Assembly: GCA_965178125.1 (NCBI GenBank)
Contig: OZ237764.1
Coordinates: 744,001 to 808,000, forward strand
Length of the DNA stretch: 64,000 nucleotides
Source: Bilabrum cf. latius
Lineage: Eukaryota
Direction: 5' to 3'
Made by a program: the position numbers and the translations under genes. Positions 6,214 through 63,329 of this stretch are shown piece after piece. Positions within the stretch are counted from its first letter, which is position 1; each line of letters begins with the position of its first letter. The notes below the pieces were generated by a model that saw only the letters and a list, made by a program, of their open reading frames with translations, was not told the origin of the DNA and ran no database searches.

Positions 6214-8511
6214 ATGGAGCCGCGCGCGCGGCGGCAAGTTGGTTCCGGAATTTCAACCACGGAAGAAGACATTGCACAGTTTACCCGACCAGCTCCAGAG
6301 ATTGTAATGGCTTCGCTGGAATCAAAGTCGAATGGGCTACCCTTGTTTGAGCTGGCCGAGTCGGCCGGGTCAAGCATGTGGGGCCCGAAGTCGCACGATT
6401 CGGACCTCATGTTCTTGCCTCTAGCTGCAAAGCCGCAAGGATACAGCGACCAAGGAACCATCTGTGAGAATTATTATCGTTACTCCCAGATTTGAGCGTT
6501 TAGTGGTAGCCTGCGTGATTGTATAGGCGGAAGGCCTCCTGAATTGCTAAGTCCTCCTCCAGTGCCCCGCACATATGCATCGCAGCAAAGTTCACCGTGG
6601 ATGACAAGGGCTTCTCCATGGCAACTGCTGCACTCATTTCTAAGTCATAGTCCAAGAGTGAGCTATTTTGGGGTGCACTGTCGCGGCTCTTGCCCTGGAC
6701 CGCGGTATAGGTGATTCAAGCCCGACGGCTTCTTTGCTGCGCAATAGCCAGTCCCGGTTTCCGATGCTTCCAATCCTAAACGCCCGATGGACCCACGACC
6801 ACTCATTGCAGCCGCAAAAGTCACGTACGAGCAAGGCTACCGCCGCGTTCGAGGCCGCGAGAAGGGCGACAAGATCAAGGAGACGATCGGCGTACAGCGC
6901 CACGCCACAGGGGGCCCCAGAAGGGGCGACAAGATCAACCGAAGGCGCCGCATCGCGAGGAACGAGAGCGGCCGCGTCGCCGTGGTGCGCCAGCCCTCCA
7001 TCCGCGTGGACCACGACACGTGGACCCAGCTGGACCGGAGGACCCTGGACGAGCTGGAGGCTAGGTCCGTGGCAACCCCTGCCGGCGAGGACTACGCATG
7101 GGTGGGCTCGCTCAAGCAGTACGCCCAGAGGAGGTTCAGCAGCCTGCAGCCTGCCCTGGGCCGTGTCGTGCTCCCGCACGCGCACGTGAGCTCGTACCTC
7201 AAGCAGAGCTCGGTGGAGGCCCGGGATGATCCGATCATGCGGCGGGCAGTGGAGGCGAGGGAGCAGGCGGAGGAGGACTTCGGGGCTGGCAAGATCAAGG
7301 CAGCGGATTTCAAGAAGCACCCCACCGTGTTTGCCTCAGAGGCGGCCATGTCGGCCATCATGTCGGCCAGGCACAGCTTCATCCCTTGGGACGTGGTGTT
7401 CACCTGCTACAAGGACCTCATCTTCATCGAGAGGAGAGACCCCCACGCGGCACGGGTGCCCACAGTGTGCGAGTCTGCCTCTAGGCCACCGGCAGAGGAC
7501 GCTGCCATCCCAGGGAACCAGACGGAGCTAGGCCTAGAGAGCCTCCTCGTGGAGTCTCTCTTCCAGCAGCAGAGCCTCTACGGGGACAAGCAGCAGAAGA
7601 TCAAGACGGCCAAGGTGCCTGCCGGGAGCAGCAGTGGGGCGGCCACCGGCGGGGCGGCATCGTCTGCCGCATCCTCCTCTGCATCGGGCGCGACCGCCAC
7701 CAAGATCAAGGGGCTAGAGGGCCCGCCGGTGGACAAGGACCCCTTCGCCGCCGCCGTGCCGCCGCAGGCACCCGCCACGCACACCTCCTTCCGTTACAGG
7801 GTGTTCGACCTGGGCGCCGACGACGACGGGCAGCCCATCCGAGTGCTGTCTCGCGGGCGCGTGCATGCAGTGCACTGCAAGGACCCCAAGAAGGCCGCGG
7901 TGAAGCCGGTCAACCTGCACGCCCTGCTGGACTGGGAGCGCCCAGGGAGGGGCAAGGTGGAGAGGCACAACGACTGGCGCAAGACCACCGAGCCCGCGCA
8001 GCTCATGCTGAGCATGCTGGGAGAGAACAAGGCCCAGGTAGGCCGCTGGCTGGCCAACGCAATGCTGGGCGGGGTGGAGGAGCTGAGGCTGGCAGTGGCA
8101 CTGCGGACCAACAAGGGCAGCACTGTGGGTCACGAGGTGCGGTTCTGCTAGAGCACGAGTGTCGAGCAGGTGGCCAAAGACGTGCTCATCTCCAGGGAAC
8201 AGATGTGGGGCATGGTGCAGTGGGCTGTGGCAGCCATCCGCACGTATGTGCGTCTCGCTCGCGCCGCCGCCGGCGTGGAGCACGAGGCCCTCGACAGCAA
8301 CGTCTACTCGTTCGTGCTGATGAGACACCCGAACGAGCCCACCGTGACCATCTACAGGACGGACGGCACGACTGGAGGGGAGCTCTTCGGCGGGGCGGAC
8401 GACGCTGCCTTCCTGGAGGAGGACATCCCGGAGGAGGATGAGGACGAGGGCGAGGACGGTGAGGATGACGCGCTTGCCGGGCTGGATGATCTGCTGGATG
8501 ATGATATGTAA
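6214..8511 (+). CDS. EIF3D: Eukaryotic translation initiation factor 3 subunit D (multi-exon; start ATG 6214 or 6307, 5' exons approximate)
   Basis: N-terminal WGP, RDDPIM, AIMSARHSFIPWDVV, TVCES, GRWLANAMLGGVEELRL, acidic tail. In-frame TAG at 6648 and 8149 (HEVRFC*STS aligns with animal HVILGTQQF). Ends TAA 8509-8511. Confidence 0.85.
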
Positions 8512-32101: not shown

Positions 32102-32592
32102 GCAATGCTGTTCCTTAGCAGCGATTGTCCCTTATTTTGAGGTCAACAACAGGAAATCTAGAGCAGACCTGATCATAGCCTCTTACTATTGCACCACACA
32201 CCGATCATTGCTTCATTTGAATTGGACAGGTGTTCTGAGCCGCTACCTACACTTATCTGAGGGATTGCTTCGATAATACCGTGCTAGATAGACCCTTGTT
32301 TGAGAGTGTATGCTCGGGCTAGCACCACGAACAGTGCTGACATGCCAACGATCAGCGCCTTTAATGTTGCCGTTCGCATTACAAAAGATGTGCAAATCAG
32401 TTTGTCGTAAAATCGCTGCAATGTCAAAGTGGCTCGGAAGTGTATGATCGACCACCCACACAGGCGCGTCGCAAACCGTGGTCGCAGGCCGTTCCCGTCG
32501 TCACACCGATCGGATCCTGACGCGAGTATCCATGGATAGTGTGCGCGCACCACATGAAACAAGGCCGCTACGCTGATCTGATCCCTCAGTTA

Positions 32593-35500
32593 TCAATCTC
32601 TCTCGAACAGCGCAACAAGCTCACAGTGCTCCGTATGCGGGAACATGTCCACAGGTACCACACGCACCAAACGAAACGGATCTCCCCGAATCAGGCTCTT
32701 GCGGCTGCTTGTCGCAAGTTTGCACAGCCTGATCGTGTCCTGCACAAAAGAGCCCGTGGGATTGCACGACACGTACACCAGCCTGCGGACGGACCGCAGC
32801 TGCCGGATGGCCGTGATGACCTGGGGGTGCAGCCCACTGCGGGGCGGGTCCACCACCGCCACAACCCGGCTACCGGCAGGGGGTACGAATACTTCAGGCT
32901 CCGAGTCAACGCTGGGAATAGCAGTCGCAGCTACGGCGCCAGACGTGGCGGCCGACTCTGATCCAGGTGATGACACTCCATCTGCCCCGCCGGCAGCGCC
33001 GGCCATGGGCATCAGACCCATCCTAATCGCCCGCTGAGCCGCCTCTTTTCGCTTCTGCTCTGCTTCTCTCCAGAACTGGAGGGTCTGTGACGAGTGCTCA
33101 CTCCCGCTCCTCCGGTCCCCTGCGTTGGCGAACGCGCCCAGCTGCCCCGCCACATCCTCCGCCTTGCTCGCGATGAAGGCCGCACTCGTCACACCCGCAA
33201 CGGCCGCGTTGACCCACGCGTCCTCGATCGCCTGCTCGCTGATGTCCACCCCGATCACCGCCTGCACCTCCCGGGCGAGGCCCAGCCCGATCGCACCCGT
33301 GCCGCAGCACACGTCCAGCAGCACAGTGGGCTGCACCTTCTGCTCCTCTCCTCCCTCAACACCATCCACTCCAGGCTCCGATCGGATCACCGCAGTCGCC
33401 GCAGATGCCTCACCGAACCTGTCGCCCCCCTCCACGTCAAGATCACCCGAGCGCACGAAGGACCCGGCGATTCCGAAGAGACGGGCCGCGCCGGGCGCGT
33501 TCGTCTGGAAGAACGCGCCCGGGCTAACCCGGAACTGCTGCCCCCTCAGCGTCTCCACCACGTGCCCGCTCCCGGCCAGCGTCACGAAGTCGGCGTCTCC
33601 AGCCGTCTGCATGACGTGGTTGGCGGGGGCAAAGTGGGCGATGACGCCCGTCACGCGGACCGGCGAGGCCTCCAGCTTGGTCGGGGACTCGCCGGGTGTG
33701 ACGAGCGCGGCCCTCCGCAGCTCGATAGGCCCCACCGTGGGGGCGCCGGTGACCCTCAGGAACTCCTCGGGGGGCTCCTCCAGGTACCCCCCGGGTGATT
33801 GCGCGGCGACCTATGGTTCCGCAGCGCCTGCGTCCGACTCCATCGGGGCCTGCCCCTTGGATCCAGTGGGTTGGGTTGTTCCTTGGCTTGTTGCCTCGGC
33901 TGATACCGCTGCCTCGTCTGTCTGCTCCGCTTGTCCGCCACTGCTGCTGCTACTGCTGCTGCTGCCTGCTGGGTTTGTGAAACTATGGGACTCTCCCCTG
34001 CTGCTACTGCTGCCTGCTGATACCTCCGTGCGCGCCCTCTTGGCAGCGGGCTGGGTGTCACTCTCCCCGGTTTGACCACTCTGGCTAGGCGTACCCTGAT
34101 GGCCGGTCGGGCCTTGCTTGCTCGAGCTGGGGCCCTCAGCAACTGCCCCTGCCCCTGCCCCTGCCCCTGCCCCTGCCCCTGCTTCTGCCTCGCCCTTTGC
34201 AGCCCTTGCTCTCGCCTCCTCCTCAGCCCGGCGATTGGCGGCCTTCGCCTCCTCGTTCTCTCGCATGAGGCGGAGGATGCCACAGTTGCTCTCGGAGGGA
34301 ACAGGGGCGGGGCAGCAATCCACCGGTGGATGCGGTATTTCCATCAGCGCTTTGGCCACCCTCTCCAGCTCGGGCATCACCTCCTCAGCCGTGGGGATGT
34401 GATGTGCCTCGCCACCGCCCGGCTATCCTGGGGCCGGGACTGCCACGCCTGCGGCAGAGACCGGTGCTGTGGCAGGAGCTGCAGCAGAGGTAGCGGGGCC
34501 AGAGGAAACGGCACTCGATGAAGATGCCGCTGATGAAGACGGCGCCGAAGAAGGTGATACGTCAGAACCAGCTGATGGTGCCGCCGCACCCCCGGTCTCT
34601 TTGCCCACCCTCTGTTCCCCGGAAGCAGCCACCGGTGCGTGTGCCCTCACGTGCAGCACCACGAGCACCCCACCGGATGCACCCTCCGTTGTCCTGATCG
34701 TGGCCTGCCTCCAGAACCCAGTGCTGGCCGTGTCGTCGCTCGGTTCCAGAGGGGAGGCCTCGAGCAGCTGCTCCAGCGTGGCAAGCACTGCCTTGGCCTC
34801 CCAGGGGGTGGGCAAAGTGGACGCAGCGCTCACCACGGGGGCCTGGGAAGTCCCATCGTGCGTTCCGCTGCGGTACCCCACGACCATTCTCCGGCCCGCG
34901 GCATGCTCTGCGGAACCGGTGCGCGGCGCCTCGATGGAGAAGGAGCACTTGTTCCTTGTGCCAACGAGGTGCGGCGAGGGGACGATCCGGAGCATCTCCA
35001 CGTTGCAGCCGATGTCCATGCGGGAGCGAAGCGAGGCCGCCTCGAGAGTCAGCGGGCCCGTGCCCGAGGATCCACCGGTGGATTGGGCCTTGGCTGCAGC
35101 CGTTGCTGTTGCTGCCGATGAAGATGAGGATGAGGACGAGGGTGATACTCCACTGGCACCACCACTGGCGGCAACTGCCCCCGCCGTTTCCCCTGCCCCC
35201 GCATGTGCACGTGCCTTTGCCTTTTCGCGCTCTCTCGCGGCCAGTTCTTGCGCGGGCACGAACGTGAACCGCTCCTTAAGCCACTCGGGCAGCTGCTCCT
35301 CTGCCTCCCTAGGCTTCAGGTTGAGCTGCCTGCGGGTCTGGTCCAGGACCTCGAGCCGGAGCTTGCGGAGCATCTTCTTGAGGGCGCGCCGGACGCCCGC
35401 CGACTTGATCCTGAGCTGGTCGTCGTAGGGGCGCCCCCACAGCGGGGTTATAGCGTCGTGCAGGCTTAGTTTGGGGGCCTCGCTCATGTTTTTGATCGGA

Positions 35501-35985
35501 ATTCGTTTCGGGCCAGGGCCCCTAGAATCGTCCCTGGACCGCTTCCGACGCTGCTGCGCCTTCTATGACCGCTCTTTCTTCACCACCTAGCGTGCGCTCA
35601 GGCTTCCACGTGCACCTTTTGCGGTCAAACGGACACCATGCAGTTTTTCGGCGCCAGCTTTGGCATTTTCTGAGCTGTCATAGTTGATGAACGCCGAGTA
35701 CTTCTTCATCTACTTTTCCACAGAAGAAATGCCATCTCCAGCGAGTGGGACGATATACTCCTGTACTTTCTTCTTGCTCCAAAATTGAGGTACGCCAGTT
35801 ACTAGTACAGTCTTGCTGTCAGCAGCATCTTTGTCCTGATCTCTACTCGAGGAAGAACCCTAACTCTTTGGTGATGATGGGCCGGTCAACTGCGATCCGC
35901 GAGGCGAAGATGAATCCCCCGCAGACATTGCAGCACTGGCACCATCTGCTGCTGCAACCATGGCTTTCTTCTACTCGCCCTCCAT
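32593..35985 (-). CDS. TRMT2A: tRNA (uracil-5-)-methyltransferase TRMT2A-like with N-terminal RRM
   Basis: [57 protein letters not shown]. The RRM (KTVLVTGVP...SAFINY) appears only on TAG readthrough. TAG at 33811, 34423, 35563, 35587, 35710, 35860, 35971; ends TGA 32593-32595. Confidence 0.9.
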
Positions 35986-36088
35986 TGGGTCCCTGCTATC
36001 AATCTGCCAAACCGCAAAGTTGCACCGCTTGTGCGGCTCCGAGTTTAGCTCCAAGACGCGGACAAAATTGCATTCAGCTCCTGGACTG

Positions 36089-36724
36089 ATGGCACTCCTC
36101 CACTTGGCGACAGTTCCGCTGGCTATAGCAGGCGTGTGGTACCTCGGCAGGGGGGCTGAAGCGTCTGGGAAGCTCATGTATGTCGTCTCGCGAGGCGCAC
36201 TCGAGGTGAAGGGATACGATTGGGAGCACAGCAGGGTGGATTGGAAGTCTATCAAGTTCGGTGTGCGACCTGCAGTATTGTTAGCTTCATTAGGGGTAGC
36301 GAAGGTGGCAGACACCTCGTTACGGCGATACTTGATAGCTCCTACACGGCTAATCAATGCCCAGTTAGCGGAACGAGTGTGGCGGGACGCCTTTTTGCAG
36401 CGGAAGCTTACATTAAGGGAAGCTTGGAAGAGTCTTGGGCCAAGCGCGACGAATCCATCCATCATGCAGTTTGTGCGGCGGCATGGAGCCAGGCTTGCGA
36501 TTGGGGGGGTCTCCATCATTTGCGGTGGGATTTTCTTCTCCTTGACCTTGCCGTACCTGGAGGCCCCGTTTGTAGTGAAAGGCAAGCCAGTCATTGACAT
36601 GCAACGGGCTAGGAATAGGCAATTCAAGCGAGAACGCAACGAGCGGATATTGGAAGAGGGCAAGGAGCAGGGCGGATACAAGAAGGAGCACGCCATGTCG
36701 AGCCGAGTTGGCCCGTCTGGGTGA
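36089..36724 (+). CDS. Small hypothetical membrane protein (~211 aa)
   Basis: Open frame with three hydrophobic segments, divergent from TRMT2A; ends TGA 36722-36724. The only model here without a TAG. Confidence 0.55.
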   Translation: MALLHLATVPLAIAGVWYLGRGAEASGKLMYVVSRGALEVKGYDWEHSRVDWKSIKFGVRPAVLLASLGVAKVADTSLRRYLIAPTRLINAQLAERVWRDAFLQRKLTLREAWKSLGPSATNPSIMQFVRRHGARLAIGGVSIICGGIFFSLTLPYLEAPFVVKGKPVIDMQRARNRQFKRERNERILEEGKEQGGYKKEHAMSSRVGPSG

Positions 36725-36881
36725 CTGGAATCCTTTGGTGAATGCATGTTGAACAGATCCCAGTGCGACGGAAATGTAGAGTTAGACATAACGACTGGAG
36801 CGATCGGCCGCCCTTTCGTACACGTACATGCAACCTAGAACCGGTCCAACGGAGACCCGCGCCACTGCCCCTGTTCACTGT

Positions 36882-39800
36882 TCACTCCACGTCTGGGAGA
36901 CTCGACCTGCACACAGGGCACTCTTGCTTGACGCCCATCCACTCCCTGAGGCACTCCGCGTGAAAGAGGTGGTGACACGGAGTCACCATGTACTAGCCCC
37001 TCTGCAGCGGCAGCTCCATTGGCTCGAGGCACACAACGCACGTGGGCTGGGAGGACTCGCCCCCGCCGGCATCCCCCGCACCAGCACTCGCACCCGCGTC
37101 AGCACTTGCACCGGCCGCGCTGGAAGGTCCTGCCCCCGAAGCCCCGTCTCTTGCACCCTCCCGCCCTGCATTGGCCCTCTGTCTCCCCAGCCGCATGGAG
37201 GCCCCCCCCGGCGCGCCCCCCTCCTCCACGTCACCGTGCCCGCCCTGCCTCGCACCCCCACCCACGCCTCCAGGCCGCACAGCCGCACCCCCGTTGGCGC
37301 CCCCATCGGTCGCAAGGGCGGGCATGGCCTCGGCTCTCTCGGACTCCCCTGCGCGGTTGGGCTCGGGCAGCCGCGAATACACCTGCCTGCCTCCGGGGCC
37401 GCGACGCACAGCTGCGTCACCGTTGCACCAACGCCGCAGGTATCGCGACCCGCGGCGCCACACGCGGCGACCCACCCGCATAGCCCCATAGAACGACCCA
37501 ACCCAGCCAGTGTACCTCACCCCATTCGGGTCACGCCCGAACACTGCGGCGCGCCGCTCCTGCTGCTGGCCCTGTCCCTGACCCTGACCCTCGCCCCCTT
37601 CCTGCTGCTAATCTCCGCCCTCACCCTCAGCCTAGCCATCATCGCCACCTCCCTACTGCTACCCGTTGGCACCGCCCGCCCCACCACCGACTGCACCCGC
37701 GGGCGCTCCCTCGGCATCGGACTCGCTGCCCGCGGCGTCCTCGTCCACAAGCACCCGGCCGTTCTCGTCCACCTCGATCTCGCGGAAGAAATCGTACTTC
37801 CGGGGCAGGCAAATCGAGGGAACAAAGAAACGAGGCCCCAGGAACTGCTACAACAGCACCACCGTGCACTGCAGCAGCATCCATACCGAGATGGAGACAG
37901 CAAGGTGCTGGTTGTAGGCACCCACCACAATCTGTGTTACGAAGTTTACCGGGCAGCCGTAGAAGTACACCACCGGCAGCATACGAGTGAGGGTGATAGT
38001 GACAACCTGATGCGTCGGCAGCACTTCCTTCTTGTTGCTGGCCGCCTGGTGCACGATCTGTGGCACCCAGAAGCTGGAGGTGAGCACAACGAGGATGGTG
38101 ATGCCGTCCCCGGTGTAGTAGATCACCAGCATGCCCGCTATTAGGGCAGCGTAGAACTGAGCGTACACCACCCCGAGTTCTCGCCTGACGTTGTCCCAAC
38201 CTCCAGCAAATGCCTCCGGCCTCTGCGCCTTGAGGAGCGTAAGCAGGAGCCGCATCTCTAGAATGCTGAACAGCACCAGCTGGAAGAAGGCAAGGATCGC
38301 GAATGGACCCAGGAGACTGCCCCCGATCACGGAGAAAGTGATGTGGATCAGGGTAAGGAAGGCGTCCTGCAGGGCTTGGATCCCCACGCTCATCATGCTG
38401 GAGCCCTCCGCCACTCTGGAGTGCATCATGGCGCTGTACAGGTGCGCGAGGGTCAGCCCCACCTGCACCACCACAGCCACGGTGGAGATCATCGCATAGG
38501 CCTGCGAGTCGCGGGAGAGTCGATCCACATTGATCAATACGGCCGCGGTGGTTATGTTTGCGCTGTAGTTGCAGTTGGGGGAGCCCACTGTTCCCTGGAA
38601 CACGTCGACCTGGGGGCCGGTGAAGCCCTTGCGGCCCGAGATGCGCTCAAAGCCGATGGACCCGTGGAGGGAGTGCATCACGGCACGGGCTCGGGCCCTG
38701 GCCGCGGTAAGGGCCTTTTCTGCCTGTTCCCTGGTGACTGCCACCCCATCACCTTGTTCCTTGGAGGAACCGGGGTCGTTCTCCCCCTCCAGAAGTCGAG
38801 ACGAAACCGCAGGGCGCAGAGAGGCCGCCCTGGCCAAAGTCGCGTCCAGCGATCCGATTCCGACCGCAATCTTGTTGTCATCCCCTGATCCTGCCTCCGT
38901 CCCGGCTCCTGCAGCTCCCATCGGCCCAGGTCCCGAGATGATGGAGGCTGATGCCATGCCTTTGCCGGCCGGCCGGAAGGACAGGGGCACCGATTTTGAG
39001 GCAGGCGCACTCTTAGAGCTCGAGGGACCACCACTCTCAGGGAACAGGACCTCGTCAGGGAACACGCGCGGGGCTCCCTGGGGCACGACGCCCCGCTCCC
39101 CCCTGACCCCTTCCGACGTCGCCTGCAGCATGGCCAGGACGCTCACTGCCACGTGTGCCGAGCCGCGGCGTAGGGAGCCAGCTCCCCTGGCAGAGGACGA
39201 AGCGGCGCGGGCAACACCGGCGGCAAAGTGGTGGACCATGCTCCTCGCGTGTGCCGTCCACGCCGCAGAGTCCAGCCAGCTGGCTCCAGAGTCGAGGGGG
39301 AGGGGAATGTCCGGTGCAAGCGTGGAATCGGCCATGAGCCGCCTGCCCCTACCCGGACTCGAACCTGCGCCTGCCCCCTCTTCAATCGCTTGCATGGCCC
39401 TAATCCTATGCTCGGCCAGGTACACTTCGTCTATCAGGATGGGCATGGCCTGTGCCCGCACCACCATCTGGCAGCGGGACCCCACCTCGGGGGCATTGAG
39501 GGTCCATTCGGGGTGCTCACTGGCGTCGAAATCAGAAGCGGAGGAGGAGGACTGGAGAACTCGCCCGTGAGCAGGACCCGCCACCGTGAGACCGTCCATC
39601 TGTGTGCACTCGTCACATGGAGAGTGCCTACCCTCGAGGTGGTGGGCGCGGCCCCCTTTCGGGTCGTGGTCGAAGCCGCCCTTGGGCTGCATCTGCATCA
39701 GGTGCTGGCCCAGGATCGCATCCACACTGACATCTTGCGGATTCTCGACATCGTCATCATGATCATCATCGCGAGTGCTTGCATCGCTGCCAGTCCCGCC

Positions 39801-40538
39801 ATCACTGCCAGTCGTGTCCTAGCCACTACCCCCGTTACTACTGGCACCCTCCCTACCTAACTTTGAGTCTTCCTTGAGGCGCTTTTTCATGTCGCCGGCG
39901 GGTCTGTTCTTGGCGCGGATCAGCAGCTCGAACCTGTGTGGGGCGGAGGCCATCACCAGCTCGCCAGTGGCAGGCATGTAGGTACCTATCATGCGCCGCG
40001 TGGCGATTCCTGGCAGGCGGATGGGATCCAAAGGTGAAAAATGGCCATCTACGACATCTGCAACCAATTCAAGGCCGCCATGTACCTGCAAAACACCCGG
40101 CTGGGAGGTCGGAAACGACTGCACCGAAATGAGCGATTGGCCGTGGCTGGGGGGGATCCCAAGCTGGTGCTTCGGAGCAGACCCATTGAATAACACCATT
40201 GCTGAAATATTCCACGGCGAGTCCTTTCGATACAACCCCATGCCAAAATCGCCTTTATACAGCCCGAAAAAATGGCCAGTTATGTTGTTGTCGTGCGTAA
40301 GCAGCCCCCGGGCTCGATTCAACTCCTCCTCTACCCAAGGCGCACCTCCCCCGGTGTACTCGCCCGGCACAACACTTGTATCGCCCTCCTCACCATCCTT
40401 CTTGTCGGATTTACGGAGGCCAAGCGCCTCCAGCACCCCGTCATCCGTCAGAAACATACTAACGATAAAAAACGAGAAGATAGCTGCGACAAAGTACTAC
40501 CTTCGTCTCTGCTGGTTATCATCATCATCTAGTTGCAT
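36882..40538 (-). CDS. Transmembrane RING-H2 E3 ubiquitin ligase, Tul1/Dsc1/FLY1-like (~1218 aa)
   Basis: Multi-TM block, SFWVPQI, LL*QFLGPRFFVP, RING CVVC...TPCHHLFHAECL..W...CPVCR. 8 TAG (40497, 39819, 37848, 37659, 37653, 37632, 37608, 36993); ends TGA 36882-36884. Confidence 0.9.
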
Positions 40539-40958
40539 AATTTTGTACCGATAATTCGATACTCGGTGAGGTGAAATGCTTTTTTTGCGGTCAGGCGCGG
40601 GCTTTTCCTGGTCAGCAAAATATGAAGATAAAGCCAAATTGTGGCGTGTGCGGGACCCTTCGGCCCAGGCGGCCGTTGATTGGATGGGATTACCTAGGGC
40701 CTGACCGTATTCTTAATGGGAGTACGGAACACTTGATGGCGAATCCTCGCCCCTCGTGAGGTCCCCCCAGGCTCGGGAACGGCCCGTGGTCCTGGCTTGA
40801 TTGAGACGTTTGGTTGCAACCGCCTTGCGGCTTTGAAGCTGCAGGTCCAGCGATACTACATCCGCCCTGGGTTTCTGTTGAGCCTGTAATTCCCCCAGTC
40901 TGAGCTGCTTCTAAACTTTACCATAGCGTCTGCTCCGCCAGGTGACACCGTCTTTGAC

Positions 40959-41826
40959 ATGGAGCTTCCTGGCTTCGCACCCCACGTCGTAGCTGCCGGG
41001 CTGGCTCCAGCTACGTCAAGCAACTTTTTGCGACGATTATGGCGATAGGACATCGATGTAGATAGCTCAGTTTATTAGATTGAATAGTTGCTCCGACTAA
41101 ACCCGGATCGAGTGTGAGAGAAGCCTGCCAGAGACGCACTTTGCGAACTGCAGAGTCCTAACATTGCTTGTTTGAGTGATCATGCGACTCCATTGGCATT
41201 TATTGATGAGCTTGTATTCCGTATCGTTGCGCAGATACAAGCTAACGTAGCATCAAAAGCAGACCAGGAACCAGTGGTCTCGCGAGGACCCTGGGTTCAC
41301 CGCTATCGTGTGCGCGCTAACGGCCGGAACGGCCATTGCTTGGGGATTTGCATGTGGGGGCGGAATTTGGGGTGCGCTGCGCAGCTTGCTCGTGCTGGTT
41401 GCTGCGTTCACCGTCGGCGGGGCGCTGGTTGCAACGTTGCACTGGCAGGTGACGAACAAATGCCTGCGGGCGCCGACCCAGCCGCATGCAGTGGAGCAGG
41501 TTGTGGAGTGGGGCTTTTGCTTCGACGTGCACGCCAACTCTTGGGTCCCCATGGCGGCCATCGGGCTGGTGGGGCACTTGCTCCTGCTGCCACTCACCCT
41601 GAGGCCGGGGCTGCTCCCCGTTCTGGTGGCCAACTCAGTCATGGCCGTGGCGGCCGGTGCGTATGTGCATGTTACATTCAGGGGGTTCTCGATCCTGCCA
41701 TTTTTGGATCGCGTGAATTCGTACCTGTATCCGCTGGTGGCGGTAGCGGCTGTGTGGGCGCTCAGCATCGCTCTGGGCTGGAATGCGAGCTTCTTGTTGC
41801 GGTGGATTCTGGTTGGAATTGCGTAA
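40959..41826 (+). CDS. UNC50: UNC-50/Gmh1 family Golgi membrane protein
   Basis: FLRRLWR, KQTRNQWSREDPGF, VEWGFCFDVHANS; intron 41114-41234. TAG at 41046, 41076, 41085, 41248; ends TAA 41824-41826. Confidence 0.9.
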
Positions 41827-42005
41827 TGTAAAGGGAATGAGCTCATACCTGCGCCAGTATTCCGCTGCTTTTGCCAGCCGTGGGAGCAATGCAGCTTCGC
41901 CGCAACCCCCGCACCGAACCCAAGATGAAGGTTCGTATCATCCGGAGCCGAATCGGAGAGACAATTCTCCGTTCACAATTCACTCCGCTGGCAGCCAAGA
42001 GGAGA

Positions 42006-45000
42006 ATGAGTGGATCCAACAAAGTCGGGCTGAATAGTATTCACTAGTTACATGGTGATATTGAGGGTCAGCTTCCCGTTTTGGACTTACATGTGAAGGG
42101 CCTCACGGTTCTGGGACGGAGTGCGGCGGTTGCGGAGGAAGACGTGAACGCGTTTTCTGTCTTGTGTCAATGCAGGTGTGACGCATCATAGCCTGTAAAA
42201 CTACTTGATAATGTTTCAGCTACCTTTCCTAGCGGGGAACTCACGCTGGTAAGCTCTCAGATGACGTCCGCATGCCGGTTGACAAGCCACGTCGCTCCTC
42301 GAGCTTTGCATCGGAATATCTTATTGCGCACACCCTGATACCGACTCGCAGGTGATTGCGCCTCCAGGAGCAGGTAAAACTACTCTACTTCGCACATTGT
42401 CCGGAGCCATGGAGATGAAACCGACATCGGAGCTCGAACAAGCCATGACCAACCCACCGTCCGCTCCTGTAGCCTTCGGCGAGTACACCCTCGGCGGCAA
42501 GTCGGCCCTGGAGCTCGGTGGCTCCCGTGTAAGCAGACTTGTCAGCCGTGTAGTTCAAGATGATGAACACTACGGGCTTATCACCGTGCGGGAAACGGCA
42601 GAGCTTGCCGTGCGCCTGAGCAATCCACCGGAATCACCGGAGCAGAAGACGGCGGCCGGAGTGGACCCTGCCGAAACACCAGCGCAGGAAGCTGCCAGGA
42701 AGGCTGCACTTTTGCTTGAAGAGCTCGGTATTGATAATGTTGCCGATACTGTTCTCGGGAATGAGACCGTTCGTGGCGTCAGCGGTGGCGAGGTGAGAGT
42801 GTCGCCTTGTCCGTTCCACAGCAAACATTGTTGCTTCGACTTCAAGCGAAGGCGTCCCCATCCCAACTAACTTAATTTCATGATTCATTTCTCTGTCTAG
42901 TTGCGCAGGCGAAGCGCGTCACGATCATGGAGGCTCTTGCGACCCCCTTAAGAGCCCTGGTGCTGGACGACGCCTCGAACGGCCTGGACGGTGCTCGCAC
43001 GAAGGCAATCGTCGCAAAGCTGAAGGAATTTGCTCGGGAGCTGCGGATTCCCATCGTGATGGCCCTGCAGCAGCCATCAAGGGAGGTGTTCGACCTCTTC
43101 CACCGCATCGTGCTCATGCGCCACGGCCGCGTGCTCTACGAGGGCCCGCGGGACGAGGCTGGGGCCTTCTTGGCCTCGATCGGCCTGGCGCCGCCCTCTC
43201 ACCAGTCAGTCCCCGACTGGCTGCTGGAGGTGGCATCCAGCCCCTCTTTGTTCTCTCCCTCTGTGGCCGTGCTGCAGGACGGGGCCCGCCCCGATGGTCT
43301 CGAGCGGTTCAAGTTCGCGCCGACGCTCGACGGGTCTCGGACCGGGGACCCTGCAGATTCCAAGGCGAGCGGCAAGGGAGGGGCGGCCCGCGCCTCTCCC
43401 ACCGAGGGCAAGGTGGACGCAGGATCGGATCAGTCCACCAGTGGAGTGGCCGTGCACCTGGACGAGGAGGGCGGCCTGGAAGAGGAGCTGGCCTCTGCCG
43501 CCTCGGGGCGCGGGGAGCTGCCCGGGTTCGACCCCCTGGCGGCGGTGCAGGCGCTCCCCGCCCTCACCACGCGGGGCATCTCTGAGCACTTCTATGCCAA
43601 GTGGGCCCCTGCCAGGCCAGCGGCGGGTCGTCCTGCGGGCGGGAGGATCCCCGGGGTCCGGCTGGCGGCAGCGGCCCCCGTGCAGCATCCCAAGGAGCTG
43701 GCCTGGCCCAAGAGCCAGGCCACGGACCTCCTCTTCGGGGAGGGATACGCGGCTGATTCGTGCACTCAGATGGGTCTCCTGCTATGGAGAGACACGATGC
43801 TCATGCTCAGGGACACGGAGTTCCTGGCCACGCACCTCGTGAACTCGGTCATCGTGGCGCTGCTGCTGGGCGGCGTCTTCTACCAGCTGGGACAGGAGGA
43901 CTTCCAGCAGTACGTGTCGCTGATCTTCTTCGCGTCGCTGTTCCTTGGTATGGGCAATTTCAGTTCACTTCCGGTTACTATTTAGTACCGGGCTGTGGCG
44001 GACAAGCAGGTGCTGGCGGGCATGTACCACCCGACGCTGTACGCTCTGTCACAGGCGCTCGTCAGCATCCCGATCGCCGTCCTGGAGACGCTCATCTTCA
44101 TCTCGATCGTGTACTGGATGTGCGGGTTTGCCAATGATGTCGGTCGTTTCCTCATCATGGCGGCCATGTCTCTCTCGATCAACCTGTTCATGGCGGCGTA
44201 CTTCCGGTCCGTCGCGTGGATCAGCGGCAATGCGGGATTCGCTGCGGCACAGGGCATGGCCATCGGCCCCTTCGCGCTACTAATGGTTACCAATGGCTTC
44301 GTGGTGACCCGCGAGAACCTGTCGGATGCCCTCTGGTGGTTCAGCTACGTCAACCCGCTGGCATACGGCATCAGGGGACTGGTGGTGAACGAGTTCTCGG
44401 ATCCCAGCTACGACAACTAGATCCCGATCGTGGAGGAGTCCGTCCTACCCAACGGCACGCAGGTCACCAGCATCCTGGGCACGAGGCGCATCGGCGACGC
44501 CTACCTCGAGTCGTATGACATGCCCACGGAGGACTGGAGCTTCTGGATCACGCTGGGCTTCCTGGTGGTGCTCGGCGAGATGCTGCTCTGCGTGGCGGGA
44601 GGCACCACTGCCTACAGCTGCATCCGGACGTACGGATCAAGGGGCACTGCCCGGGAGGAGAACACCAAGGAGGAGGAAAAGGCCGCGCGGAAGATCTCCA
44701 AGAGAGTCATTGACGGGGTTGCATCAGGCAGGCTCACCCCCGAGATCGAGATGGCGAGGGCAAGGAGCTCCCCCTCGGAGGAAGCTGCCCGCGGGAAGGC
44801 CAGCGGCGCATCGGCTGGTTCGACCCACGGCAGCTCCATGGTGTGGGACAACGTCAAGTACACTGTCAAGCTGACTGACGGCTCTGACAAGACTCTCCTG
44901 CACGGCATCTCGGGCTGGGCCAAGCCGGGCCAGATCACTGCGCTGCTGGGCGAGTCTGGTGCGGGCAAGAGCACGCTGCTGGACTGCCTGGCGGGCCGCA

Positions 45001-46709
45001 AGAACCAGGGCAAGCTCGAGGGCTCGATCCTGCTGGACGGCAAGCCCGCCACTCGGGATGCCATCAACCTCGTGGCATCGTACGTGGAGCAGTTCGACCA
45101 CCACGTGCCGCAGCAGACCGTCAGGGAGGCCCTCGAGTTCTCGGCAGACCTGCGGCTCCCCGCGGGCACCCCTGCCAGTGAGCGAGCCAAGGTGGTCGAA
45201 CGCGTGCTGGACCTGCTGGAGCTGACCAGCATCCAGAACTCGAGGATCGGCCTGCCCGGGGCCAGCGGCATCAGCGCGGGCGAGAGAAAACGGCTGTCGA
45301 TCGCGGTGGAGCTCGTGTCCCAGCCGAGGATCATCTTCCTGGACGAGCCCACGACCGGGCTGTCTAGCCTGCAGGCACTGGGGCTCATGAGGGCTTTGAG
45401 GAGGATCGCCGATGCGGGGCACTCGATCGTGGCCACGGTGCACCAGCCCAGTGCCTCCATCTTCTTTTAGATGGACAGGCTGCTGCTGCTGCGGAGGGGC
45501 GGCGCCACTGTGTATTTTGGCCCCCTGGGTGACAAGGGCTCTGCTCTGATCAAATACATGGAGAGCTGCAAGGGGGTGAGGCCGCTGCCGCTGGGCACCA
45601 ACCCGGCCGACTGGATGCTCGAGGTCGTGGGCGAGGCGGGGAGGGCCAGCCAGGGCAAGGGAGGGGAGGCGGGGGACATCGAGAGCAAGGGAGAGACCGT
45701 CCCGGATCTAGCCGTTCAGTTCGATGGATCGCAGGCCGCCAACGTGATGAAGGCGGGCCTGGCCGCCCTGAGGTCGGGTGAGGGGCTGAGCGCCGCCCCC
45801 GCCGCGCCCGAGCACCCCAGCTGGCTGCAAGAGTTTGGCGTCGTCATGAGCCGAACAGCCACGGTGTCGTGGCGGGACGTTGACTACAACACTTCGAGGA
45901 CGATCGCAGTGCCCTTTTTGGCCACCATGTTTGGGCTGACGTTCCTGCAGCTGGACGACGTGGACCAGGCGGGGGTGTTCTCCGTCATCGGGGCGTCCTT
46001 CATGGGAGCGACTTTCCTGGCCATCGTGCTGCTCAACCTGTCCATCCCGCCGCTGATGACGGTGAGGCCTTCTCTATACCGCGAGCTGGACGCGGGTTTC
46101 TTCACGCCCGAGTCGTGGGCGCTTGCAACAACCCTCATGGAGGTGCCGTGGGTGGCATGCCTCTCTGCTGCGTTCTCCGCCATCCTCTACTTTATGGTGG
46201 GACTGGACCCGGCCAACTACGGGGAGTTCTACGCCACTCTGCTGACCCTGTCGCTGGCCATGACCATGATGGGGCACGCCGTAGCCATGGGAAGCGGCTC
46301 TTAGCAGACAGCTACTGCCATCGCTGGGTCTAGTTCCTCCATTATGTTCCTCTTCGGGGGCTTCTTGGTGACTGGGCCCGACATGGACCCGGGGTGGAAA
46401 TGGCTGCACTACATCGTGCCCATCAGGTACGGACTAGCCGGGCTCGTTACACCAGCCTTCCACTGTCCGGAGGAGGGGCTGGAAGGGCCCGACATGCCCG
46501 CGGGGGAGCGAGGCCCTTGCTCGACTGTGACGATTGTGAGGGATGGGCAGCTGCAGGCGGGCGTGGTCAAGTCCGACTACATCGATAACTTCATGGGGTT
46601 CCGGTTCGATGACATCGGGTTCTACACTGGGATGCTGGTGGGGTACTTTGTGCTGTTCGCGGCGCTCAAGATGCTGCTGCTCCGATTCGTGAGGCACCAG
46701 AGCAGGTGA
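42006..46709 (+). CDS. Full-size ABCG (PDR-type) transporter, NBD-TMD-NBD-TMD
   Basis: PPGAGKTT, VSGGE-AKRV, ALQQPS, GESGAGKST, ISAGERKR, LDEPTTG, HQPS; introns 42249-42351 and 42793-42908. TAG at 42045, 42189, 43983, 44418, 45468, 46302; ends TGA 46707-46709. Confidence 0.92.
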
Positions 46710-46954
46710 TCCGAAAAGCATCAACATGGTGAATTTGCACAGAGCTAGAGCACTTTGCCCGCATTGAGACAAATTAGATGACGGTGAATTGCCGAGTATG
46801 AAACTGAATCTTGTAGCTCACTCGCAGAGCAGTGGCTCATTGCCAGCAGCCGTATATGAATGTGAAAGACCACGGTACTACCCAGGATCCTGCCAGTGGT
46901 CGTTTTTGAGACATCGCAACACTCCGAGCATACTCAAACTTACCCGCGACAGCC

Positions 46955-47341
46955 TACGGCTGGCCCTTCCCGGCACCTACCACCTCTATCCAGCATGCAG
47001 TCAGTCAGTACGATTGAGACGCTGGAGAGGGCCTGCGCAAGCGCCTGGTGTACAGCGTCACGGTCCTGTGGTTCGTGCCTCTGCCAGCACCAGGAAGCCC
47101 AGCATGATGCAGAAGGCCCAGTGCTCCGTGTGCATGTCTAACTCCGAGCATGAGCATAGTGTCTCTCCACAGCAGGAGACCCATCTGAGTGCACGAATCA
47201 GCGGCGTATCCCTCCCCAAAGAGGAGGTCCGTGGCCTGGCTCTTGGGCCAGGCCAGCTCCTTGGGATGCTGCACGGGGGCTGATGCCGCCAGCCGGACCC
47301 CGGGGATCCTCCCGCCCGCAGGACGACCCGCCGCTGGCCTG
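46955..47341 (-). pseudogene. Inverted, internally deleted fragments of an ABCG gene copy
   Basis: 47146-47341 is the reverse complement of 43613-43808 (6 substitutions); ~47085-47138 resembles 44517-44570; ~46955-47002 weakly resembles 45609-45650. Confidence 0.8.
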
Positions 47342-47608
47342 ACAATGGCGGGGTCCCAGTCACAGGATCAGAGTACTTCCGAAGGTTCGTACGCCATGAT
47401 CAATTTTCGAAGATGAAATCGTAATATGCGATCCCATGAACCACAATCGTCCTGACGATAGGCAATTCAACGGCTGGTTCATTGCGATTAAGGAATTCAA
47501 TTTCCTAACCATTGTACCTTTAAACTAAGGAGCCGAGCTTCTCCCTGTGCTACGGATTGACCGAGTGCCAACGACTACGGGTCGGACAACGTGAACGCTT
47601 CGAGTATC

Positions 47609-50600
47609 ATGGCCTCGGAAGGCAGTCAGCGCAGCTCCAGGCGCCCTAGTAAATTGCTAGGATCGACAACACTTGCAGGTGGGATATCTGCCTCAGAACT
47701 CGAAGCTCTATCGTAGCAATCGGCGGAAGCTACCCCTGATCAAGAAGTCCTTGCCACATCCGGTGTCTGGCAAAAGATTTACGATGCCAACGAGTAGAAG
47801 CCATTCTATTACAATTTAAAGACGGAGGAATCCATGTGGGAGCGCCCGGCGTCCTTCGGGTGGGAATCAGCGGCCGACGAGGAGTCTGGTGAGCGGTTCT
47901 GGCTTTTTGAGGACGACGATCAAGCCTACCTGTGGGCCAATCCAGCGTGGCAAGCAGGTGTAGACGAGGAATCCGGCAATCGGTACTGGCACAACGTCGA
48001 CACGGACGAGAGCACGTGGGACAGGCCGGACGACTACGCATCGGACACCGAAACCGAGCGAGTTTCGATGGAAGAGGGCGCCAAGCAGAGGCGAGCACTC
48101 AAGGAGGCAGCTGCTCGCAAGGCCAAGTAGGCTAGCAAACTACCCCCACCCCCGCCCCCGCCTCCGCCTGCGGCCGGCCCAGCCGGGCCTGGGAGCTCTC
48201 CCGGCACTGGCAGCAGAGACGGCACCACTCTGCCGTCTTCCAGGGGCGGCCAGGCCTAGAAGGCCGTCCGCAAGGCCGCTGTCGTGGTGCTAGCCAGCGA
48301 TTCGGAAGCCTCAGATTTCGAGGATGGTGAGGAGGACCATGTACACGCTACTGTAACCCGCCGGGTCACCAAGGTCAGCCGGGGGTCCGGCGTGACGGTG
48401 AAGAGAAAGAAGGCGGCAGGTGCAGCTGCGGGCAAAGCAGGCACTACTGCAGTTCCCGGTGGTGCAACAAAGGGATAGGGGCAGGGAACAGCTGACCCAT
48501 AGAGCACAGGGGTGCCGGAGGAAGCAAGTCTGCTGCCCCCGCCCCCGCCTCCTCCGGGAAGCGGCGGCGGGCAAATTTCAGGTGCATCGCACGAAGGTGC
48601 ACCCCCACCGCCGCCCGCCGCACCTTCCAGCACCGATGCACTCCCGCCCCCCCCGGCAGCCCCTGCCCCTGCCCCTGCACCCGCACCCGCACCTGCACCT
48701 GCATCTGCTGCAGTCGCCTCCAGCGAGCCGCTGCCTCCCCTCAACGACGCGCTCAGCACGCGGCTCCTGCAGCGCATTGCCACGGACAGCACCCTCCGGC
48801 AGGGCATACCCATCCTCAAGTTCGCGGGACCATCCGACCTGACCGCCGCCCGGCAGGTGCTCAGTGACTCGGTGGCTCGGGTGGGCCCCGGGGAGGAGGT
48901 GGCGGCGGAGGGCGAGCTGGCGGCGGGCGGGGCCGTGCTGGTGCTGGACGGGGACATGGATGTGACGAGTGAGGGAACAACAAGGGCTGCCGGGCCGGGC
49001 ACTGTGCTCTTTGGCGACACGCTGCTCTCGGGCTCGTCTCGCTACGAAGGCTCGCTCAGGGCCAGGGAACAAGGGCGGGGGGCCTATGTGGCGCGGCTGG
49101 CCCTGCACGCGATGCAGGCAGCGCTCGGGCAGGACTGGCTGGTGCAGCGGGGGAGGCAGGCGCTGGAGAGCGATGCCTCCATGCTTCCCACGCTGCTGCA
49201 GCCTGTGCCCTTCTTGGCCGCACACAGGGAGGCCTCGGCGCCCGTCCTGATGGAGCTGTCGCTGGTGGTGCAGAGGCCCGCGCTGCACCTGGTGATCCAG
49301 GAGGGCGCCCCTGTGGACGGGTTCTTCGTGCTGCTGCTGGGCAGCGCCAGGGTGGCCGTGGAGGGTCGCGTGGTGGCGGAGTGCGGGCCAGGGGCCTTCT
49401 TCGGAGAGATGTCCATGCTGGGGACAGGCGGGCATAGTGGCAGTGGCGGTGCGGCGGCAGCAGGGGCCGGAGCAGGGTCGCTGCCGTCGTCGTCCTCTTC
49501 CGGTGGTAAGCTCGCCAGCGCCTCGGTGGTGACGACGAGCCCCTCGCTGCTGCTGTGCGTCCCCCGGCGTTCCTTTGGCGAGCTACTCGAGAGGTGTCCT
49601 GGAGTGGCGGACGAGCTGCAGAAGCACGCCATACGCCGCACCGCTCTGAATCTCAAGGGACTTGGCGCCGCGAGTCCCCTCGCACTCGCCACGGAAGCCC
49701 AGCTGCAGGCCCTGGCGGCTCGGGCCTCGATAGAGACCGTCCCAGCAGGCCGACCAGTGGCAAGGCGGGGCGACCCTAGGGGACATGTGACCGTCGTGCT
49801 CTCCGGAACAGTGGAGGAACAGGGATTCGAACCCGCGAGCCCGTCCTCTTCAGACCCCATGCCTGCGCTCACGGGGGAGACGAAGCAGCGCAAGCCCGGA
49901 GATATCGTGTCCGCGTCGGTGCTCTTCGAGGACTGCCCCTCGTCGGTTCCGGCGGATGCTGTCGTGGCTGGGGGCGAGCCCGCCCGGCTGATGCGGTTCG
50001 GTTCGCAGGACTTTGCAGCTGCAATGGGAGGTGCGGGCAGCGCCGCGATGGCTGCTGTGCTGCTGCGGCTGCGCGGCGGCTCCCCGCGAGCGAGGGACAT
50101 CGCCGCGGTGCCTGCCCTAGCCGAGGCTCTCATCAAGTTCGGCGGGAGCAGCAAGGTCAGAAAGGGGTCCGTGCAGCTGCTGGGCGCCGCCAAGAAGTTC
50201 CGCTTGCTAGCCCGTGGACTGGCGCCGCGCGCGGGCGTGGTGGACGTGCCATCGCCGGACATGGTGGCCGCAGCTCGGGCCGTGGAAGCCATGCTGCAGG
50301 ACCCGGTGGAGGGTCCCGCCCTGCAGGCCATCATGGGGTAGCCCCTGTATGACGAGTGCAGCAAGAAGCTACACGCCTCGCTGCACGCAGCCCACCGCAG
50401 GCGATTCTCGATGATGCCCGGCGGCAGAGCTGCTTCCGGGGCGGGTGCAGGGGGCGGGGCATCGGGAGGCGACGGGCAGCGGGCGGGGCCCATGCCAGTG
50501 ACCCTGTTTGACCGGGCCGCTGCCGCGCTAGACGCCCACCTGGCGGAGATCGTGAGCGAGTTCGTGGACTCGCCCATGTACGCTGCCTGCATGCGACGGG

Positions 50601-53600: not shown

Positions 53601-54709
53601 CCATGGCCGGTGCGGTAGGGATCGCTGCCATGCGCGGGGCTGCCAAAGAGGCGAAGGAGGATGCACAGGCGGCTGCCAAGAGCAAGAGCAAAGGCAAGGC
53701 AAAGGGCAAGAAGAAGGGCAAATCTGCTGCAAGTCTAGGACTGGGTGGGACTGACGAGGCCAGCACGCCGGGGCTGGGCGGCAAGTGGCTGGGCCAGATG
53801 GTGCGGCGCGCGAGGCACAAGGGCAAGGCCGCCATCGCGGTGCGGGTGCAATCCAACCGTGGATCTGCAGCGGCTGCTACTGGTGCTGGGTCGGGAGACG
53901 GGGTGGATCTCCCCGTGTGGGCGCTGAGCCATGTGCATGCGGCGGCCCGCGCCATTGCGCAGGAATACGTGGGCGGGGGCATGCCCTCGGAGGTGAACGT
54001 GCCCGGGTCCATGTCCAAGGCCACCCGGGCTGTGGTTTTGGAGGATATGCTGGGGGCTTGTTCCCTGGGAGGGGCGGAGCCGGGGTCCGATTCCGGATGG
54101 ACGGCAGAGCGCGCGGCTGGCGTGTTCGACACATGCGCAGGGGAGGTGCTAGCGCTGCTGGAGCGGGACAATTTCCCCCGGTTCCAGTCGGCGCTGCAGG
54201 AGAGGGACAGGGCAGGGGCCAGGGCTGCGTACGGCAAAGGGGGTGGCGTCGCCGCGCTGGGCCAGGGTGCGCCATTCTGCGTGCAGCTGGTGCGTGACGG
54301 GAGGTCGGTGGGGTCCCTCCGAGGTAAGGCTCGTCTCCTGACGGTGGGTGCATCGTGCTGCAGGGCAGAGACAGCGAGGGAGTGCAGACAGCTCGAGTCC
54401 AGGAGGCAGCTCATCAGCGCGGAGAGCTCCATGGCCAGTCTGGCGGCAGCACAGGCGATGGGGGCTGGGCTGGCTGGAGGCGGGGCGGCCGGGGCAGCGG
54501 AGGGCGGCGCCGTGGAGGTGGAGGGGGAGGGGGCGGATGACCTGGAGCTGGGGAGCGACGATGACGAGGACCTGATGGCTGGCCTGCTGCAGGGGGGCTC
54601 CTCGCTCAAGAAAGTCGAGGTTGCAACCGGCGGCGGGACGGACGCGGACTTGGACCCCGGCTCGGAGATGGAGGATGAGGACGATGAGGATGATGATGAC
54701 GATGAGTGA
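47609..54709 (+). CDS. Giant inositol polyphosphate 5-phosphatase (~2366 aa): WW repeats, Pro-rich, cNMP-binding domains, RGS-like, PH-like, 5-phosphatase, second RGS-like
   Basis: TWNVG, IGLQE, GNKGGV, CHLAA, GDLNYR, FAPTY, SWTDRVLW, SDHRPV; cNMP motif FFGEMSML; WW motif YWHNVDTDESTWDRP. One 7.1-kb frame with 8 TAG (47714, 47795, 48128, 48257, 48476, 48500, 50339, 52466); ends TGA 54707-54709. Confidence 0.88.
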
Positions 54710-58423: not shown

Positions 58424-59532
58424 ATGGCTGATGTGGATTCCTTTGCAAGTGCAATTATTGGCGGACCAGAGGGTGAGCTTCCATCTACGAGGGTAATAGT
58501 TCTGATTCCATGCACCATAAGTCCTCGTGCCACACTCGCGGTACGGATCCCGCAGGTTTTCACACTTCGGGTGTGAAATCGCTCAGCAGGGTATTATTAG
58601 AGTAGCCAAATTATGGCCGTGATATCGTGAGCTAGGCAACTCGCCCAAAGTCTCGCTGATGATGTGGATCAGTGCGCATCTCGTTTGGTATCTACATGCA
58701 GCACCAGAATCGCAGGCAATGTACGCCACCCGAGCAGAGCAGCGTATTTCTGGTAACATTGGACGACCAGTAAGTCCCAAACGATCACCGCTGCTTTTCA
58801 ATATTTTGCCGTTTTGCTGTCAAGCAAGTAGCAAGCAAGTAGCAAGCAACGCGCGCCCCCTCCCGCTCCGCAGACTGCACCCACTACCATGCCAGCGGCC
58901 GTGTGCTATGAAGCCGTGGAGACTGCGCGTTTTATTGTTGGGTGGGTAGCATACATTTACTCTCTGCATATCACCATGCCATTTTGAATCGGCTGCCCAT
59001 GTCCATCGTTGCAACAACATCGGATCGCTTGCTGCTTTCCCGCAGGTCTGCACTCCGCGCCGGGTGCTCGCCCGCAGACATGTAGTCCCAGCTACAGGAT
59101 GAAACCGACCTGTCTCCCGCAGCAATTGCATCGCTACGGTCGGCCATGGAGAGATGCTCGGTCAAAGGGCCGGAGGCAGCCAGCAGCGGGGCAGGAGCTG
59201 CGGGCGAGGTGGCTGCACCTTCGGGCAGCGGCAGCGGCAGAGCGGGAGCCAGCACCCCTTCTATCGGGCGCCTGCACGACGTCAGCTGGTCTGTGGCGGC
59301 CGTGGTGGCATCATCGAAGCGACCCACGGCAGGCGGCATCGCAGCTGCAGTCACGCTGGCCATCGATGTGGCAGACCCGGACGGTGCGGAGGGCTATGAC
59401 CGGGGGAGCGGGGAGGGTGCCGATGGAGACGTGGGTGGGGTGCGGAGGGCGGCCATGGAGCTGTCTGTGGAGGAGCTGAGGCAGCTGCGTAGGGAGCTGG
59501 GGCGAGTACAAGCTGCCATGGCAAGGGTGTGA
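58424..59532 (+). CDS. COMM-domain (COMMD family) protein; 5' exons uncertain
   Basis: Last exon GRLHDVSWSVAAVVASS...MELSVEELRQLRRELGRV fits the COMM domain pattern. In-frame TAG 59083; ends TGA 59530-59532. Confidence 0.65.
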
Positions 59533-62539: not shown

Positions 62540-63329
62540 TCATGAGCCCCCACTCGCCGCACCAGCCCCGGTCGCTGCCCCGGACCCCTTCTTGCCCTTG
62601 CTCTGCTTGACGTTGAGCTCTCTCGCCACCTTGTCCATGAACTCCCTCACCTTTGTAGCGCTCGCCTTCTCATCGACGTCCGCAGAGCGCACGGCAGCTC
62701 GCAGGGCGCCCTCCATGGCCGCAGCCCCGCCGTCCAGCGCCTCGAACTTCCCGATCAGCTCGTCCAGGTCGGACGGCTGCACGTCGCGGCCAATGGCACT
62801 CTTCACAATAACCAAGGACTTCTCCTAGTCCAACTCAGCGTCCAACACGCCAGCGTACTTTGCCTTCAGCACAAGCTCCTCTACCTCATCGGTGTCCTTC
62901 AGATCCAAGTCCTTGCTTAGCTGATCGTAAGATAGCTCGCGGCTAGATTGTGCCATCGTCACAATGGAAAGTTGTTTAAGTTTCGATATGTGCTTGTCGG
63001 TTAGGTCGGGCATTTCTCGTTCCTTGGCTGCGATGGCGGTGCACGCATGATCCGCACTCGCAACATTTGCTACACTTCTTGCGCACTCACTGAACAAATG
63101 TTCCGAATTTCTTACCCTTATAATCTGAATATGTTCCAAAAGCAAACAATTCTAACGCCTTTTTCCACTTGCTCGTAACGACGTGCTTCATTCCATCGTG
63201 GTCAAGAAGCTCGCCAAACACCAGCACCTTTGGATCGGCAAGAGCCTACCGGATTGCCCCATCGATACCGCCTGCCGATGATGCTGAATCAAACAACACG
63301 AAATACTTTTCTAAGGCACCCGCTGACAT
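62540..63329 (-). CDS. COPS7: COP9 signalosome subunit 7 (PCI domain)
   Basis: VFGELL, LELFAFGTYSDY, KLKQLSIVTMA, LD*EK...IGRDV; intron 63028-63115. TAG at 63246 and 62825; ends TGA 62540-62542. Confidence 0.88.

Follow-up and report, generated by a model that had tools for sequence, protein, structure and literature searches.

The locus raises the question of whether TAG is read as glutamine. In the stretch of DNA analysed, which is 64 kb long and is called the window here, one minus-strand reading frame holds four TAG triplets within 18 codons, amid CAG codons. A sequence-only reading had proposed from this interleaving that TAG is synonymous with CAG, and had held that the argument relied on no database.

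A Tul1-like ligase with in-frame TAG codons

The minus-strand ORF at 36882-40712 contains eight TAGs and no other internal stop. When TAG is read as Gln, one frame encodes both the membrane domain PF11145 (185.5 bits; 735-967 in the numbering of protein P0001) and, C-terminal to it, a RING (41.7 bits; 1224-1269). This is the PF11145-then-RING architecture of Tul1-like ligases. We take a ligase with these two domains to be of the Tul1/Dsc1-type family (Pfam label: Transmembrane E3 ligase/DUF2921). The domain order and the motifs FWVPQI, PRFFVP and YMVTPC are common to this family and the window protein, which differs by its long Gly/Ala/Gln-rich linkers and is otherwise an ordinary member. No matching solved structure was found for the membrane domain, and folding from the single sequence gave a low-confidence model (pLDDT 42). 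The gene is intron-free wherever transcript contigs reach.

The codon positions of the cluster were confirmed on the minus strand (Table 1). The four TAGs correspond to residues 1018-1035, the nine CAG codons of the tract fall between 37658 and 37562, and a fifth TAG begins at 37850. The tract starts with G#Q#GGGDDG#AEGEGGD# (# being TAG), and CAG adjoins three of the four clustered TAGs, the exception being 37634, which is flanked by GGC and GCT. At the average TAG rate, a run of four within 18 codons has p ~1e-3 (corrected for ~734 windows), whereas 4 TAGs among the 13 Gln-type codons of the tract, against a general share of 11%, give only p=0.05. Because this conditional value is only 0.05, the cluster is the ordinary outcome of a Gln-rich tract once TAG means Gln, with no special structure. 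Taken alone, the tract is weak evidence for that meaning.

The fifth TAG had been placed at the Q of the family motif LLQxxLGPRFFVP, and this was borne out, with Q found at its column in all six homologues. Moreover, the DUF2921 score at this site is 92.0 bits with Q, and none of six other residues brings it above 86.1. The G#GQG also mentioned in that reading is present at 48473-48487 (TAG 48476), with another TAG at 48500; none of the long transcript contigs among those listed covers 48473..48502. The surrounding gene is an intron-free frame of 2366 aa with WW, cyclic-nucleotide-binding, inositol 5-phosphatase and RGS domains.

Table 1. Positions of the genes, codons and segments discussed in the text
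Feature	Positions	Strand	Details
eIF3d TAG at Gln column	8149..8151	+	gene frame 6715-8511, TAA end
Tul1/Dsc1-like transmembrane RING E3 ligase	36882..40538	-	1218 aa with TAG=Gln, 8 in-frame TAG, TGA end
TAG within RING domain	36993..36995	-	Q in 1/6 homologues; Pfam uninformative
Gly/Gln low-complexity linker	37560..37661	-	4 TAG (37661, 37655, 37634, 37610) and 9 CAG
TAG in invariant Gln column before GPRFFVP	37848..37850	-	residue 955, VVLL#QFLGPRFFVP
UNC-50 gene	40867..41826	+	PF05216; ATG 40959, intron 41114-41234, TAA 41824-41826
ABCG transporter 3' frame	42876..46709	+	upstream introns 42248-42350, 42791-42906; TGA end
CAG/TAG swap site	45372..45374	+	window CAG (Gln833); TAG in aligned expressed copy, X5 and X7
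WW/cNMP/5-phosphatase/RGS gene	47561-54709	+	8 TAG; G#GQG and second TAG within 48473..48502
CSN7-like PCI protein TAG at LDQ position	62825..62827	-	Q in 3/3 alignments shown (CSN7b chains)

TAG across the window and the residue it specifies

The evidence on the code covers this one 64-kb window, which has a GC content of 60%, introns of spliceosome type (GT-AG, 103-121 nt) and genes of eukaryotic housekeeping character (eIF3d, CSN7, UNC-50, PX, ABCG, tRNA methyltransferase). Sixteen genes were curated by eye from the list of ORFs with TAG as sense, 11 with clear Pfam matches, one with a weak match and four with none. The second copy of a duplicated gene and ORFs lacking clear frame evidence are not among them; left out were 1-777, 16032-17606, 17702-18586, 58912-59532 and an EH exon. 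The 13215 codons of these genes include 62 TAG, 403 CAG and 87 CAA, and TAG makes up 62 of the 552 Gln-type codons (11%). All 16 genes have in-frame TAG. No in-frame TAA or TGA and no frameshift was found in the 13215 codons, against ~33 TAA and ~240 TGA per shadow frame. The code change extends over the window and is not peculiar to the Tul1-like ligase.

Under the standard code the window has 7 ORFs of at least 500 aa. Treating TAG as sense raises this number to 19; treating TAA as sense leaves it at 7. With TGA as sense there are 21, but the longest reaches 1034 aa, compared with 2382, and shadow frames often contain TGA. The genes that end in TGA hold 42 TAG and no TAA in 9483 codons, where ~9 TAA are expected at the CAA:CAG ratio if TAA meant Gln.

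An improbable alternative is that TAG is ambiguous by context, acting as sense internally and also as a gene end. The lack of any TAG in the last 36 codons before the stops speaks in its favour, yet with 0 of 16 Gln-type codons (p=0.15) the gap falls short of significance, and the genes end in TGA (10) or TAA (6), never in TAG.

Some further features of the window can be described. A direct duplication of 1.9 kb (11941-13848 and 19303-21209, 98.8% identical) carries a family-less gene with two TAGs; among the seven codon differences of the pair no CAG/TAG swap was seen, and one is a CAA/CAG swap. A tandem repeat at 16688-17071 reads (GGGDDTGV/A)n on the plus strand and (SVITAAYA)n on the minus strand. 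A putative two-exon gene at 3072-5736 (minus strand) has an EH domain at its N-terminus and a PX domain after it. The protein encoded at 59626-62346 (minus strand) matches beta-galactosidase (GH42) weakly (E=5e-4), and its gene has six TAGs and a TAA end.

Few TAGs lie in clearly conserved columns (Tul1, eIF3d and CSN7), and all three of these are Gln. At the eIF3d site both alignments shown to solved structures have Q, as does the 98%-identical relative P0009. This relative finishes at the same residue as the window protein, whose gene ends there in TAA. This eIF3d (6715-8511, plus strand) is very divergent, with one match among 8000 scored candidates and ~49 bits to solved eIF3d chains. In the CSN7-like protein the PCI domain score is highest with Q. 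TAG occupies Gln positions, as a code giving UAG alone to Gln specifies, and the conserved sites are few.

In a Pfam test 14 segments were scored under the seven residues that lie one base from TAG, and 12 gave scores; UNC-50 exon 1 and the C-terminal segment of the sulfatase matched Pfam under no code. Summed over the 12 segments, Q is ahead of K by 13.3 bits, of E by 17.5, of S by 19.9, of Y by 29.7, of L by 32.5 and of W by 43.3. Without the Tul1 segment Q leads K by 7.4 bits, and Q ranked first in only 5 of the 12 segments. Homologue residues at other TAG sites are mixed: K/Q, T/K and E/E in two homologues of the sulfatase, P, E, N and Y (Q at none of four) in one distant homologue of UNC-50, V and R at the two sites of the LRR gene, and E in both homologues of the 5-phosphatase. 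In the four TAG columns of ABCG, Q accounts for only 3-9%, and the homologue alignment of the GDSL gene stops short of its TAG.

The proposal that TAG and CAG are synonymous is supported by the conserved columns, the Pfam scores and a codon swap described below. The part of it that was to stand without any database turned out weaker than had been held. TAG is indeed enriched beside Gln codons in the 16 window genes, 11 of the 62 having a CAG or CAA neighbour, which is the top share of all residue classes (p=0.004), but with the ligase gene excluded the count is 7 of 54 (p=0.08), and a classifier based on neighbour context places Lys first by 7.4 log units, with Gln second.

This classifier result speaks for TAG as Lys or Glu, or as an ambiguous Gln plus another residue, a reading that we regard as very unlikely. 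Glu would agree with the E seen in homologues at two sites (5-phosphatase and sulfatase), and a ciliate with UAG=Glu is described in PMC10553269. Against Lys and Glu stand the three conserved Gln columns, the summed Pfam bits and the fact that TAG swaps with CAG, not with AAG or GAG. Moreover, in trials on true Gln the classifier gives the right residue just 10 times out of 40. Its Lys lead was reached by none of 150 unmatched true-Gln samples and by 4% of GC-matched ones; it drops from 7.4 to 2.4 once a single Lys-rich gene is removed, and true CAA sites likewise drift towards K. Local GC3 is 0.63 around TAG, 0.66 around CAA and 0.77 around CAG. We consider the Lys lean to be mostly an effect of composition, with a small residue unexplained.

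Transcript contigs and related gene copies

Contigs of three sequencing runs cover parts of the window, X5 and X7 coming from one study and X6 from another. None of the runs listed as carrying the sequence is recorded as RNA. The RNA status of these three was guessed, X5 being flagged as 'probably DNA', and we judged all three to be transcript-derived because the contigs show splice joints. The introns 41114-41234 and 42248-42350 are skipped in X5, X6 and X7, and 42791-42906 in X5 and X6, while the contigs thin out in the intergenic interval 46982-47538. The UNC-50 gene has its in-frame TAGs at 41046, 41076, 41085 and 41248, and its splice joint is found in all three runs. Single contigs (37256-40577, 37331-40380 and 37520-39138) cover parts of the ligase gene with no differences and no gaps. 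Since contigs of X5, X6 and X7, runs that splice neighbouring introns, cross the Gly/Gln tract unchanged, splicing and bulk editing are excluded there. The tract is unspliced and unedited in the main transcript, where rare variants would escape the contigs; removal of this segment from the mRNA, named beforehand as fatal to the argument, is not what the contigs contain.

One X5 contig (40867-44907, plus strand) joins UNC-50 to the ABCG gene with three introns spliced. The two genes are ~100 nt apart, and the joint contig may represent overlapping UTRs merged in assembly.

The ABCG transporter gene has TAGs at 43983, 44418, 45468 and 46302 in its 3' frame and two more upstream. The polymorphism between CAG and TAG that had been suggested as a check was found between copies of this gene. 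A diverged expressed copy has T at 45372 (depth 49 in X5, 4 in X7), a swap that is read from 9 of the 28 differences of the X7 contig, those listed, with the second and third codon bases assumed unchanged. Each of the eight further differences listed for this copy affects a third position and is silent. At 45372, C is retained in X6 and in the relative X8. In addition, the database proteins P0010 and P0160, which come from different contigs and are 71% identical to ABCG, terminate exactly before the Gln833 codon, and both have Q where the window protein has TAG at residue 515. We infer from the position that their end is a TAG misread as a stop by a standard gene caller. In a tree of the best 90 of 150 matches the window protein groups with P0010 and P0012. 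Downstream of the gene, in the gap at 47146-47344, lies a 199-nt inverted copy (96.5%) of the ABCG coding segment 43610-43808.

These data bear on the reading of the TAGs as real stops of pseudogenes, sequencing errors, intron sequence or RNA-edited sites, which is largely refuted already and which we hold to be extremely improbable. Partial editing would be hidden in contigs, which omit rare variants, and the guessed RNA status of X5-X7 also leaves this reading some room. On the other side, the contigs splice three GT-AG introns, thin out between genes and cross TAGs unchanged, the 13215 codons are free of in-frame TAA, TGA and frameshifts, and most of the differences that set related copies apart are silent (33 of 40, these 40 being the ones listed among 1283). 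As for editing, Trp, the product of A-to-I editing, has the worst Pfam score. Reading both UAA and UAG as Gln (NCBI table 6) was rejected, TAA not being reassigned: TAA as sense brings no gain in ORFs and internal TAA is absent.

Code, host lineage and significance

We are confident that the window belongs to the nuclear genome of a protist, GC-rich, poor in introns and probably flagellated, in which UAG means Gln while UAA and UGA are stops, as in NCBI table 15. The 16 genes hold TAG in intact frames (retained in spliced contigs where these reach) and have UAA or UGA as stops. TAG would then be a rare third Gln codon, concentrated where genes are richer in AT and weakly biased, and a Gln-rich linker may for that reason gather several. 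By analogy with Iotanema and the ciliates, a duplicated tRNA-Gln(CUG) may have acquired the anticodon CUA by one base change, and such a tRNA would pair with UAG without wobble to UAA; eRF1 would have lost efficient recognition of UAG. The change would be common to relatives down to 71% protein identity. No tRNA genes were found within the 64-kb window, and the eRF1 gene is absent from it.

PMC11687900 (McGowan et al. 2024) lists four taxa in which UAG alone became Gln, namely the fornicate Iotanema spirale and the ciliates Hartmannula sinica, Trochilia petrani and Protocruzia tuzeti, other UAG-only cases being Leu or Ser. Iotanema has the same codon meanings as the window, and UAG is a minor Gln codon in both (~8% there, 11% here; Panek et al. 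2017, PMC5304391). However, this anaerobic fornicate of the gut ends its genes mainly in UAA (104 against 15 UGA; PMC5304391), whereas the window, at 60% GC, has UGA in the lead (10 against 6 UAA). The relatives of Iotanema retain the standard code (PMC9161772), and the eRF1 of Iotanema carries T32G in the GTS motif (PMC5304391, PMC9161772). The table 15 ciliates resemble the window in UAG=Gln, in the retained UAA stop and in having in-frame UAG in most genes, but the phyllopharyngeans have a GC content of 27-54%, UGA at the end of at most 13% of genes and UAG as 18-32% of Gln codons, and genes of Hartmannula sinica and Trochilia petrani end mostly in UAA (PMC11687900). From its 60% GC and mostly UGA stops the window is therefore probably from none of these ciliates. 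Table 6, in which UAR means Gln, is attributed to many ciliates, hexamitins, ulvophytes, Streblomastix and Amoeboaphelidium in PMC11687900; it has TAG=Gln in common with the window, but not the reassignment of TAA.

The host was sought among named sequences and metagenomes. Named homologues among 23 database proteins are only distant (Umbelopsis, two Salpingoeca and two GILJ01 transcripts), no relative was matched in the genome-contig and viral-contig collections scanned, and a metagenome scan gave a single distant, intron-rich locus (L001). Sequence X8, from an algal-culture metagenome, covers 32500-49200 as a relative of ~90% DNA identity with shared gene order over several kb. The Ala/Gly/Ser-rich linkers of the window are, in our estimation, like those of Cafeteria-type stramenopiles. 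Cafeteria has 70% GC and fewer than two introns per gene (PMC6972860), and the window is likewise GC-rich and intron-poor, which is a likeness only. We give an even chance to the host being a stramenopile, and lean towards a host lineage without a published code change. In the literature searched, with subscription journals, supplements and database metadata outside its scope, no nuclear UAG reassignment in stramenopiles was found. The code itself is known, and the host lineage is probably new. An independent and unreported origin of UAG-only-to-Gln, clade-wide, in a lineage without a printed nuclear code change and plausibly the first in stramenopiles, we consider slightly favoured.

A nuclear code seldom gives UAG a meaning other than that of UAA, and the one seen here has been described so far only in a few unrelated protists. 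If the clade-wide reading is true, the change is common to relatives at ~90% DNA and 71% protein identity and belongs to a GC-rich genome with UGA as main stop, unlike the UAA-dominated cases described so far. Standard gene callers truncate the proteins of such a genome, P0163 lacking the UNC-50 N-terminus and P0010 and P0160 stopping at a Gln codon, and the lineage is thereby hidden in databases. Hosts also exist for the eukaryotic viruses reported with TAG=Gln. Transcript data come from two studies or more, and there are CAG/TAG sites that segregate or are paralogous, which makes the tRNA, eRF1 and the timing of the change accessible to direct study. Moreover, a further origin in a GC-rich, UGA-ending organism tests the idea that AT pressure and disuse of a stop underlie stop reassignment.
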